Part shown: positions 5,688-6,110 of the stretch, piece by piece | Layout of the letters: each line of letters opens with the position of its first letter | Numbering within the stretch: the stretch's first letter is position 1 | NCBI GenBank assembly: GCA_963663895.2 | Contig: CAXXRD010000002.1 | Coordinates: forward strand, 576,001-640,000 | DNA length: 64,000 bases | Reading direction: 5' to 3' | Source of the DNA: Dehalococcoidia bacterium | GTDB lineage: Bacteria; Chloroflexota; Dehalococcoidia; Bin125 | The notes under the pieces: model-generated | What the model saw: only the letters and a program-made list of their open reading frames with translations | The model's database searches: none | Told to the model about the DNA's origin: nothing | Translations under genes and position numbers: made by a program

Positions 5688-5744
5688 AAAAAACGAACCG
5701 AAGGGGCCGACCCGAAGGCCGAGCGTCGCCCCACCCGGTTCGTC
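5688..5744 (-). terminator. Intrinsic terminator ending the candidate ncRNA
   Basis: Minus strand GACGAACCGGG...TTCGGTTCGTT stem (enclosing a GGCC-UUCG-GGUC hairpin) running into TTTTTT. Confidence 0.7.
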
Positions 5745-6110
5745 TTGCGGACTTCCGGCCGTCCCTCCACTTCGTTACGGATCGACACCCATCCGCATCG
5801 AAGCGCAGGGCCGGTTACGGCTGGGGCGCCTGATAGTGGCGCTTTGGCGGGTTCCACCCCGCCACTCAAGACTTTCAGGAGCGTCCGATATTTTCTCAGC
5901 CCTCGCGGGCTCCGGGCACCGGACCGGCCAATCTCTCCAGATCGTCGCTTGACGCTATCCCGGCTGCAGCCGGCGCTTTCACGACTCTTCCAAGAGATCG
6001 AAGCGAGGCATGCCTTCCTCGCCCCCTGAACCGCTTGCCCTCCCGGTACTTCGTTCGGACAGGAACACTACCGCCCGCCGAAGTCACTGCAAACCGTAGC
6101 AAGCATGGGA
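5688..6110 (-). ncRNA. Candidate large structured non-coding RNA of unknown class
   Basis: At least 10 nested or adjacent helices with UUCG/GNRA loops and G-U pairs readable on the minus strand; ends in a stem plus U6; no credible ORF. Boundaries are approximate. Confidence 0.65.

Follow-up and report, generated by a model that had tools for sequence, protein, structure and literature searches.

A probable ~400-nt RNA gene upstream of rpsU

The minus strand at positions ~5688–6086 of the window (the whole 64-kb stretch of Dehalococcoidia DNA analysed here) very probably holds an independent gene, the representative of a new, clade-restricted family of structured noncoding RNA, as judged by sequence comparison. 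We observed a gene architecture with its own promoter motif and terminator, a fold maintained by compensatory changes, a single copy in the genome, a fixed place beside rpsU, a narrow phylogenetic range and presence in RNA libraries. The gene (5688–6086, minus strand) would be about 400 nt long, both ends being placed from the promoter and the terminator. The preliminary description of this locus had set the 5′ end at 6110, whereas the position of the promoter points to ~6086.

The strand assignment of that description was right. The minus strand folds at −213.8 kcal/mol (z = −3.89), a value reached by none of 100 shuffled sequences, while the plus strand folds at −177.7 kcal/mol (z = −2.42; 2 of 100 shuffles as low). 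Likewise, a covariance model of the 3′ domain scores 93–124 bits on this strand of the full-length members and 29–41 bits on the reverse strand. All complementary segments that had been quoted were also found on the minus strand where they had been placed.

A compensatory fold shared by 14 homologues

Comparison of 14 homologues from five genera revealed a common fold maintained by compensatory changes, in agreement with the structured RNA proposed earlier. RNAalifold predicted 96 pairs for eight sequences, 33 of them compensatory, and 95 pairs for all 14, with 41 compensatory. Sub-alignments made by MAFFT lacked structure-awareness and gave a poor RNAalifold consensus; per-sequence folds and by-eye reading were therefore used. 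The curated model for the 14 sequences contains 76 pairs with 95.1% of cells paired, compared with 32–46% in slid controls, and 31 pairs (85 cells) changed on both sides. None of 500 shuffles was as good, a statistic that kinship inflates, since the set comprises 14 distinct sequences from closely related genera. In these five genera the base pairs are under strong purifying selection.

The 5′ part begins with the hairpin P1 (GACUUCG/CGAAGU; 6047–6085, minus strand), in which 93.9% of cells are paired and two pairs changed on both sides. Its tip is variable, reading CGGGCGG/CUGUCCG in genus g1 and forming another hairpin with a GCAA loop in g9 (by eye, unscored). P2 (6028–6040, minus strand) is a short hairpin with a near-invariant GGCAAGCGG; it is 96.4% paired, and at columns 78/88 a G-C pair has changed to A-U. 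P3 (GCGAGG-AAGGCAUG-CCUCGC; 6003–6022, minus strand) has a conserved GGCA loop core on a stem that varies between genera and stays complementary (GCGAGG/CCUCGC, GCGGAUG/CAUCCGC, GUGGGCG/CGCUCAC), compensation that was read by eye since the automatic alignment was offset and not structure-aware.

The central arm (5928–6001, minus strand) consists of P4, P5 and P6 closing on P7 (CCGGC-UGCA-GCCGG; 5960–5973, minus strand), which is kept across the 14 homologues. It carries a 5-nt bulge, GAUAG (5955–5959, minus strand), and a segment, CGGCUGCAGCCGnGAUAGC, that is invariant in 12 of the 14 sequences. Downstream, P8 (GUCCGGU/AUCGGAC; 5883–5924, minus strand; 96.9% paired, five pairs changed on both sides) encloses P9 (AGCCC-GCGA-GGGCU; 5898–5911, minus strand), which ends in a GNRA loop and is 100% paired with three pairs changed on both sides. 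The central and P8–P9 arms covary together: their 27 pairs are 93.4% paired, 17 of them changed on both sides, and 0 of 500 shuffles were as good.

Most helices drawn in the preliminary description are part of this fold, namely ACUUCG/CGAAGU, GCGAGG..CCUCGC, CCGGC-UGCA-GCCGG, GUCCGGU/AUCGGAC, AGCCC-GCGA-GGGCU, UGGCGGG..CCCGCCA and the terminal hairpin, but two are not conserved. The 5′ strand of its outermost helix, GCUUGCU/GGCAAGC, is the conserved promoter motif described below, and CCUGA.AGU/ACU.UCAGG clashes with a covarying hairpin, GCGCC..GGCGC with the loop CUAUC. Taken together, these two helices are paired in 69.0% of cells against a shuffle mean of 68.7%, and 202 of 500 shuffles were as good. 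Two small hairpins, CGUC-AAGC-GACG and AUCU-GGAG-AGAU, can indeed form, but in genus g1 only; the conserved model places their bases in the long-range helices P4–P6 around P7.

The 3′ domain and an alternative pairing

The 3′ domain contains three hairpins. H1 (GGCGGG..CCCGCC; 5846–5863, minus strand) has a GGA-containing loop, and five of its six pairs changed on both sides. H2 (GCGCC..GGCGC; 5826–5842, minus strand) is 100% paired with two pairs changed on both sides. Its loop, CUAUC (5832–5836), is complementary to the GAUAG bulge of the central arm (5955–5959), making a candidate pseudoknot; this contact is 100% paired and all but invariant, the one change being U-A to U-G, so that covariation speaks neither way. 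H3 (5760–5813, minus strand) is a long, irregular and highly conserved hairpin with the base CCCU.C/G.AGGG and the loop GGAUG..UGUCGAUCC; its 20 pairs are 96–97.5% paired, three of them changed on both sides and 9–11 invariant. Among the elements of the RNA, H3 makes the best candidate protein-binding site. A sixth genus, g10, keeps H2 and H3 beside rpsU and has lost the rest of the RNA (the 5′ two-thirds), and the 3′-domain model scores this remnant at 57 bits.

We also considered mimicry of ribosomal RNA by H3. The base of H3 did not turn out to be a consistent Shine-Dalgarno/anti-Shine-Dalgarno (SD/anti-SD) mimic, its middle position being variable and mismatched and the 16S tail reading CCUCC. 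By-eye comparison of H3 with the 3′ end of 16S rRNA found nothing consistent between genera.

A predicted long-range helix closes the domain by pairing GGACGCUCC (5878–5886, minus strand) with GGAAGUCC (5749–5756, minus strand), as suggested by RNAalifold on eight sequences and by duplex energies. RNAalifold paired 224–232 with 359–366, with G-C/C-G and U-A/G-C changes. Since the 5′ strand of this helix shares bases with the 3′ strand of P8, the two helices are mutually exclusive. Both duplexes are possible in all 14 homologues, at −8.9 to −17.0 kcal/mol for P8 and −7.6 to −20.3 kcal/mol for the long-range helix.

Distribution

The 14 distinct homologues come from five genera of one Dehalococcoidia family, g10 being the sixth genus with the 3′ domain only. 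Within the order, the RNA turned up in 15 of 65 genomes, and it turned up in none of the other families sampled; 49 of the 65 gave no convincing match, so that in those 49 bS21 would function without it. The carriers form a small group of Chloroflexota associated with sponges and corals, and the matches in public records are to Chloroflexota/Dehalococcoidia.

BLASTN against 41 relatives gave nine matches; a 28-nt match in genome G028 (E = 5e-4) was regarded as chance. A pattern scan of the genome contig collection returned 54 loci, of which six were true and two of these duplicated known loci, and a scan of metagenome contigs returned 40 loci with one true, identical to locus L056. Scans of viral contigs returned 1 and 0 loci, none of them true. 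Two covariance models, R1 and R2, each run over 151 genomes of the class, and R1 also over 151 of the phylum, matched only G000, G010 and, marginally, G336 (30.4 bits). A 33.8-bit match in G045 (genus g6, same order) was taken as noise because reverse-strand matches score alike.

Transcription of the RNA and of rpsU

Upstream of the fold, the extended −10 motif TGnTAnnnT reads TGCTACGGT at 6093–6101 (minus strand), and all 14 homologues have the motif at the aligned position. This consensus was derived by comparison in the present analysis and is a candidate promoter, from which transcription of the RNA would start at ~6085–6088. The motif is rare: the 64-kb window has 14 copies on both strands (128 kb of strand), three of which lie directly upstream of the RNA gene, rpsU and a tRNA-Arg gene.

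At the other end, the terminal long hairpin and U6 (5688–5747, minus strand) form a predicted intrinsic terminator. The preliminary description had proposed a terminator with U6, and a terminator-like hairpin followed by T6 was seen at 5714–5694. In all 14 homologues the terminal hairpin has −33 to −51 kcal/mol, and per-sequence folds showed outer stems that differ yet remain complementary. The U6 tail is confined to genus g1; other genera have tails such as UGUCGUUAA, and these U-poor tails may allow read-through into rpsU.

RNA libraries of sponge, coral-reef and marine origin also contain the RNA. Metatranscriptome contigs from four runs of three studies cover 5734–6069 at contig depths of 2–1025, although contigs of this kind reveal neither the ends nor the strand nor the abundance of a transcript, and DNA may be present in RNA libraries. 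In the four runs no contig lay over rpsU, the ykgJ end, 5300–5733 or 6070–6400, an absence to which we gave no weight. Contigs end at 5734 (X17, with adapter sequence beyond) and at 5735 (X16), which hints at best weakly at a 3′ end within the stem of the terminator.

The downstream gene rpsU (5361–5555, minus strand) encodes ribosomal protein bS21 (64 aa, GTG start; Pfam PF01165, E = 7e-13) and follows the RNA in 15 of 15 RNA-bearing loci. A further extended −10 motif, TGCTAGGGT, precedes it at 5627–5635 (minus strand). In the 260 nt that precede rpsU, TGnTAnnnT occurs exactly once in every one of the 29 evaluable loci, one more locus being too short. Because this motif separates the terminal hairpin from rpsU in all 15 loci with the RNA, and sits in the same range of distances from the start codon (−45 to −88) as in the 14 evaluable loci lacking the RNA, rpsU seems to have its own promoter.

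The preliminary description had left two options, a standalone structured RNA or an unusually large attenuating leader for rpsU. The RNA has what a stand-alone gene should show, namely a promoter motif, a covarying fold, a terminator and RNA-library contigs (with the ends placed as above), and the second TGnTAnnnT between the terminal hairpin and rpsU favours an independent gene. The alternative, which we consider unlikely, would make it an outsized cis-acting leader or attenuator of rpsU, transcribed from the upstream promoter, in which bS21 or another signal bound to the 3′ domain sets termination versus read-through and the library RNA is the terminated leader. The RNA resembles ribosomal-protein leaders in being a structured RNA immediately 5′ of a ribosomal-protein gene, always on the same strand, with a terminator hairpin that precedes the coding sequence (~130 nt ahead of the rpsU start codon), but a leader should have no promoter between itself and its gene, and here the separate motif intervenes at every RNA-bearing locus. 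An attenuator would be in keeping with the mutually exclusive P8 and long-range helices, which all 14 homologues retain together in the manner of a switch, with the U-poor tails outside g1, which might permit read-through, and with g10, which, without the 5′ two-thirds, still has H2 and H3 next to rpsU. Yet relatives have just 50–200 nt 5′ of rpsU without such an element, and known ribosomal-protein leaders are several times smaller than this RNA. An S21 leader is absent from the searchable text of one survey (PMC7247131), in which the terms S21 and rpsU have 0 occurrences.

Comparison with known RNA families

None of the 4227 families of Rfam 15 matches the RNA. At gathering thresholds, the whole window gave two tRNAs only. 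A cmscan search of positions 5300–6400 at E ≤ 10 returned five matches, all to miRNA or snoRNA models, at 12–20 bits against cut-offs of 42–100, and a search of five homologous loci, 16,001 bases in total, with E ≤ 1 returned one 11-bit tmRNA fragment outside the element. The classes that the preliminary description had singled out for comparison (OLE, raiA, GOLLD and ROOL) gave no match in either search, nor did HEARO, and the suggestion of an OLE-like class thus found no support from the OLE model (RF01071) at these thresholds. Its statement that the RNA lacks the hallmarks of RNase P RNA, tmRNA and SRP RNA agrees with the searches: none matches here, and full-scoring copies lie elsewhere in the genome (C3:4515–4884, 289 bits; C3:137883–138240, 145 bits; and C3:174198–174297, 65 bits, respectively). 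6S RNA (RF00013) had no match at the locus or anywhere in the 65 genomes of the order, with a model so insensitive that it misses nine of 14 control genomes and detects five.

OLE is the ornate large extremophilic RNA of Bacillota, ~600 nt long, and 6S RNA is a rod of roughly 180–200 nt with a central bubble. That the new RNA belongs to a known class (6S or Ms1-like, OLE or raiA) and has diverged so far that current models miss it is in our view very improbable. The slot for 6S RNA is formally open in this genome and in the order, the silence of so insensitive a model saying little, and the RNA shares with 6S its own promoter and terminator and its presence in RNA libraries; but it is twice as long, multi-branched and not rod-like, and it is missing from 49 of the order's 65 genomes, among them genera in which 6S is equally undetected, unlike a housekeeping RNA. 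Its size falls within the range of ornate RNAs, yet not even a weak relevant Rfam match was found.

The resemblance to OLE is one of analogy. Both are large, multi-domain, highly conserved bacterial noncoding RNAs with a connection to bS21, whereas the new RNA has no sequence or structure match to OLE, is ~400 nt and not ~600 nt long, belongs to Chloroflexota and not Bacillota, and is linked to bS21 by gene adjacency only. The report connecting bS21 with OLE that the preliminary description had mentioned does exist, and according to its available text bS21 binds a defined SD/anti-SD-like helix of OLE RNA (PMC12054373); the G/C-rich base of H3 is loosely SD/anti-SD-like as well.

With GOLLD, ROOL, raiA and HEARO the RNA shares a complex conserved fold, a pseudoknot candidate and the lack of an assigned function. 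It differs in giving no model match and in being chromosomal, single-copy and in fixed synteny, with no phage or mobile-element association, as the two scans of viral collections gave no true match. Self-complementary loops, UGCA in P7 (12 of 14 sequences) and CUUCGGCCGAAG at the terminator tip outside g1, recall the homo-oligomers that the available text of PMC12286853 reports for GOLLD, ROOL and OLE. In the literature on S21/rpsU leaders, Chloroflexi structured RNAs and sponge Chloroflexi noncoding RNA, as far as its accessible text goes, the element is not described; it is also absent from the texts of PMC7247131 and PMC11109978, whose supplementary motif lists might contain it.

Upstream region and neighbouring genes

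Further upstream lies a conserved block, CAC..TCCCC..T(G/C)(C/T)AC..TCCAC..GACAGAA..GTCC (6219–6310, minus strand), invariant with fixed spacing in 13 of 13 sequences. Its GACAGAA is 129–135 nt from the alignment reference start (window 6109 in g1). RNAalifold found three pairs only in this block, none of them covarying, and it probably represents DNA-level regulatory sites outside the RNA fold. A replication origin, considered for its DnaA-box-like TTATCCAC, was set aside, as the window has no GC-skew turn and each locus one box-like site. A second conserved element, TTATCTC (6144–6150, minus strand), lies 43 nt upstream of the −10 motif, and its TTATC is nearly invariant in 14 sequences.

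A ykgJ-like gene lies upstream of the RNA on the same strand in most genomes. That the RNA is no independent RNA at all, but the 3′ UTR or a processing product of the ykgJ-like mRNA, or a decaying relic with incidental structure, is the least likely reading and hardly credible: although this gene order and the partial deletion seen in g10 would allow it, the pairing is under strong purifying selection in five genera, the RNA is preceded by its own promoter motif and separated from ykgJ by a ~220-nt spacer that is poorly conserved and without conserved structure, and it is kept, upstream of rpsU, in locus L086, where no upstream ykgJ-like gene was found.

The link to mgtE drawn in the preliminary description did not extend to other genera, as the 8-kb loci examined there contained no mgtE. 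A conserved hypothetical gene convergent with rpsU (4140–5279) was rejected as a partner, being present in 65 of 65 genomes and thus not tracking the RNA.

Possible function and implications

Bacteria have few RNAs of more than 300 nt that fold into intricate, conserved structures, and the large ones understood so far are ribozymes, ribonucleoprotein scaffolds or self-assembling particles. The novelty here is an RNA family without an Rfam relative rather than a demonstrated mechanism, with covariation that is strong for just 14 sequences. Its hosts are uncultured symbionts of the class Dehalococcoidia, whose RNA biology is essentially unexplored, and the analysis also provides a promoter signature, TGnTAnnnT, that can be used in this bacterial family.

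In the model that we propose, the extended −10 promoter (TGCTACGGT, 6101–6093) would drive transcription from ~6086. The RNA would fold into the 5′ hairpin P1, the small hairpins P2 and P3, a long central arm (P4–P7) with its invariant hairpin and the GAUAG bulge, the GNRA-capped P8–P9, and a 3′ domain of H1–H3 closed by the long-range helix that competes with P8. The transcript would end at the long terminator hairpin (with U6 in g1), and rpsU would then be transcribed from its own promoter.

The adjacency to rpsU, together with the OLE–bS21 report as far as its available text goes (PMC12054373), leads to a concrete hypothesis, that bS21 binds the H3 hairpin. We tentatively suggest, as one possibility, that the RNA serves as a scaffold or decoy for bS21, a small basic RNA-binding protein that would be bound mainly via the near-invariant H3, and that it buffers free bS21, by analogy with the reported binding of bS21 by OLE RNA. 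The P8/long-range switch and the GAUAG–CUAUC contact may gate this binding. The tie to bS21 is one of adjacency, which in a small clade could be inherited synteny. A more speculative and less probable extension is that the RNA is the founding member of a new ornate RNA class, a trans-acting store or titrator of bS21 that tunes Shine-Dalgarno-dependent initiation in uncultured sponge and coral symbionts, with the P8 switch and the pseudoknot controlling access to H3. If this is true, large RNAs would have come to sequester bS21 at least twice, with OLE in Bacillota and with the new RNA in Chloroflexota.

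A structured RNA gene fixed beside rpsU

An independent, conserved structured RNA gene is fixed beside rpsU (5361–5555, minus strand; PF01165), with the RNA itself predicted to occupy about 400 nt on the same strand (about 5688–6086). Further upstream lie a CxxCxxCC-domain (ykgJ-like) gene (6320–6949, minus strand; PF03692), tRNA-Arg (6944–7020, minus strand) and mgtE (7223–8569, plus strand). The element is present in a single copy in the genome, and its linkage to rpsU is kept even in a homologous locus (L086) where the upstream ykgJ-like gene was not found. On the other side, a 379-aa ORF without a Pfam family (4140–5279, plus strand) converges with rpsU; it is kept in 65/65 genomes of the order and adjoins rpsU in the RNA-bearing genera examined. 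Separately, the segment at about 8000–16000 has a G+C content of 0.58–0.62, against 0.69–0.75 in the rest of the window, and may be foreign or otherwise unusual.

The minus strand of 5688–6110 folds at −213.8 kcal/mol (z = −3.89), a stability reached by 0/100 shuffles, and the plus strand at −177.7 kcal/mol (z = −2.42; 2/100 shuffles as stable). The RNA strand is settled as minus by R1, a covariance model of the 3′ domain, which scores full-length members at 93–124 bits forward versus 29–41 bits on the reverse strand. RNAalifold predicted 96 pairs, 33 with compensatory changes, from eight sequences, and 95 pairs, 41 of them compensatory, from 14. A curated model comprises 76 pairs, with standard pairing in 95.1% of cells (88.1% on average in shuffles) and changes on both sides in 31 pairs and 85 cells; these values were reached by 0/500 shuffles, a figure that overstates significance because the sequences are related. 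This kinship does not affect two further lines of evidence, namely that sliding the partners by 1–3 columns lowers pairing to 32–46%, and that many different Watson–Crick pair types occur per position. Scored separately, the 3′ domain and the central and P8–P9 arms agree with the whole model.

All elements of the fold lie on the minus strand. From the 5′ end, P1 (6085–6047) is followed by P2 (6040–6028), which bears the near-invariant GGCAAGCGG, by P3 (6022–6003) and by a central arm, P4–P7 (6001–5928), with the hairpin CCGGC-UGCA-GCCGG and a 5-nt bulge, GAUAG. P8–P9 (5924–5883) ends in a GNRA loop, and the 3′ domain comprises H1 (5863–5846), H2 (5842–5826; loop CUAUC) and the long, irregular and almost invariant hairpin H3 (5813–5760). 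The terminal hairpin (5747–5689) comes last. Every complementary segment quoted in the preliminary description for 5688–6110 is present on this strand, and not every helix proposed from them survived comparison. The outermost GCUUGCU/GGCAAGC and the helix CCUGA.AGU/ACU.UCAGG lack conservation, pairing in 69.0% of cells where shuffles average 68.7% (202/500 do as well), and the 5′ strand of the former coincides with a predicted promoter element. As for the small hairpins, CGUC-AAGC-GACG and AUCU-GGAG-AGAT do exist in g1, the genus of the window's organism, and are confined to it; the conserved pairing of that region is long-range (P4–P6).

Two features may extend this fold. The GAUAG bulge and the H2 loop CUAUC are complementary in 14/14 sequences, which makes them a candidate pseudoknot that covariation cannot test because both segments are almost invariant, with one change from U-A to U-G. 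P8 shares bases with a long-range helix around H1–H3: its 3′ strand (AUCGGAC) overlaps the 5′ strand of that helix, GGACGCUCC, whose partner is GGAAGUCC at 5756–5749. RNAalifold picks the long-range helix from the eight-sequence alignment, with G-C/C-G and U-A/G-C changes, and P8 from the 14-sequence alignment, with five pairs altered on both sides; both duplexes are possible in 14/14 sequences with similar energies. In g1 the middle segment common to both helices is altered together with both partner strands, the signature expected of alternative conformations. We infer from these few independent events that the RNA may adopt both.

Some exposed tips carry self-complementary sequences. The P7 loop (hairpin 5960–5973) is UGCA in 12/14 sequences, the other two having UUAA and CUCG, and outside g1 (L004, L007, L052, L086 and other loci) the tip of the terminal hairpin is the self-complementary CUUCGGCCGAAG. 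Such tips are possible sites of RNA–RNA self-association.

Distribution, novelty and presence in RNA libraries

BLASTN against 41 relatives revealed full-length copies in g1 relatives at 96% and 93% identity, and about 70% identity over the core in two further genera of the same family. rpsU occurs in 65/65 genomes of the order, which represent one family and ten genera (g1–g10). Scanning 30 rpsU loci taken across the order with an nhmmer profile located a full-length copy ahead of rpsU in 14 (g1, 3; g9, 7; g5, 1; g4, 1; g2, 2), a copy reduced to its 3′ part in g10, and no RNA in 15 (g6, 10; g3, 2; g7, 3). The region upstream of rpsU is just 50–200 nt long in the RNA-less genera, and the neighbours differ there too. 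R1 over all 65 genomes agreed with this distribution, giving 15 convincing matches: g1 3/3 (source genome included), g9 7/7, g5 1/1, g4 1/1, g2 2/3 and g10 1/1 (57 bits); g6 gave 1/37, marginal at 33.8 bits, and g7 (0/9), g3 (0/2) and g8 (0/1) none. A conserved-motif scan of public genomes returned 54 loci, six of which, including two duplicates of known loci, nhmmer confirmed; all six come from MAGs whose title is Chloroflexota, Chloroflexi or Dehalococcoidia bacterium. R1 together with R2, a model of the central domain, had no match beyond this bacterial family among 151 genomes sampled from the class, R1 had no convincing match among 151 sampled from the phylum, and metagenome and viral scans yielded no additional sequence. 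Because of these searches the family is regarded as narrow, with 14 distinct full-length sequences and one remnant.

That remnant, in g10, keeps H2 and H3 beside rpsU (L075, about 1829–1941, minus strand of the locus), and the promoter and the 5′ two-thirds are gone, which looks like a deletion. It scores 57 bits with R1 and has no match with R2; the ykgJ–rpsU spacer there is about 300 nt long and retains the first three upstream motifs described below.

The element is a new family against Rfam 15. At gathering thresholds the 64-kb window contains two tRNAs only; at E ≤ 10, 5300–6400 gave five miRNA/snoRNA models at 12–20 bits against cut-offs of 42–100, and at E ≤ 1 five homologous loci gave a single match, a tmRNA fragment of 11 bits that lies outside the element. 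The comparison with OLE, raiA, GOLLD and ROOL proposed in the preliminary description was thereby made and gave no match, and HEARO gave none either; RNase P RNA, tmRNA and SRP RNA of the genome lie at other sites with full scores. In full-text literature searches neither an S21 leader nor this RNA turned up, and the element is absent from the text of two motif surveys, whose supplementary tables could list it. The novelty concerns the family, and no new mechanism is claimed.

The stretch is present in DNA runs labelled as sponge, coral and unspecified metagenomes, and partly in RNA runs. In four metatranscriptomic runs from three studies, contigs with a depth of 2 to 1025 span 5734–6069, wholly inside the predicted RNA, and one, differing at 10 positions, derives from a related strain. 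As contigs give no ends, strand or level and RNA libraries can contain DNA, this establishes presence in RNA libraries rather than a mapped transcript. Contigs of two different studies end at 5735 (X16) and 5734 (X17, adapter sequence immediately after), within the 5′ arm of the terminator hairpin, weakly hinting at a processed 3′ end or a library artefact.

Gene organization, possible function and probable promoter signature

When upstream regions were aligned, TGnTAnnnT proved invariant upstream of the RNA in 14/14 sequences; in the window the copy is TGCTACGGT (6101–6093, minus strand), ending 7–8 nt before P1. Each of the 14 RNAs terminates in a long hairpin (−33 to −51 kcal/mol), and the outer stems, though variable in sequence, remain complementary. 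The terminator claimed earlier was recovered as a terminator-like hairpin followed by T6 at 5714..5694; the U6 occurs in g1 only, and elsewhere tails such as UGUCGUUAA follow. rpsU has TGnTAnnnT exactly once within the upstream 260 nt, at −45 to −88 relative to the start codon, in 29/29 evaluable loci whether the RNA is present or absent (the 30th was too short and was left out); here it is TGCTAGGGT (5635–5627, minus strand), downstream of the RNA terminator. From the two promoter motifs and the terminal hairpins, the unit reads as promoter, ~400-nt RNA, terminator, rpsU promoter and rpsU. That the RNA is instead a cis-acting attenuator of rpsU appears improbable, and the remaining rival explanations are given smaller odds.

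H3 is the most conserved part of the RNA, with many invariant paired positions; such conservation is typical of a protein-binding site, making H3 a candidate for one, and bS21 would be the nearest candidate partner. A precedent is OLE RNA, which is reported to bind bS21 at an SD/anti-SD-like helix (PMC12054373). The H3 base (CCCU.C/G.AGGG) loosely resembles such a duplex but differs from it in a variable, mismatched central position, and its likeness to the organism's own CCUCC tail is inconsistent among genera, leaving the resemblance as a lead only. Binding or titration of bS21 by the RNA is put forward as a tentative suggestion.

Downstream of the ykgJ-like stop codon and ahead of the RNA promoter, the block 6219–6310 (minus strand) holds short motifs (CAC, TCCCC, TGCAC/TCTAC, TCCAC, GACAGAA and GTCC), invariant and at fixed spacing in 13/13 loci, with GACAGAA always 129–135 nt from the alignment reference start (6109 in g1). 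The block, in which no conserved RNA structure was found, probably comprises protein-binding DNA sites controlling the RNA gene; its TCCAC motif resembles a DnaA box (TTATCCAC) in g1 and part of g9. TTATCTC is conserved at 6144–6150 (minus strand), 43 nt upstream of the RNA −10 motif, in a spacer that is otherwise unalignable, AT-rich in g1 and GC-rich elsewhere.

TGnTAnnnT is rare: the 64-kb window contains 14 copies over both strands, a total not above chance, three of which stand directly upstream of the RNA, rpsU and tRNA-Arg on the correct strand, the last at 7029–7037 (minus strand), 9 nt before the tRNA. Judged from its placement, TGnTAnnnT looks like the extended −10 promoter signature in general use in this bacterial family, and it could serve to annotate transcription starts in MAGs of the family.
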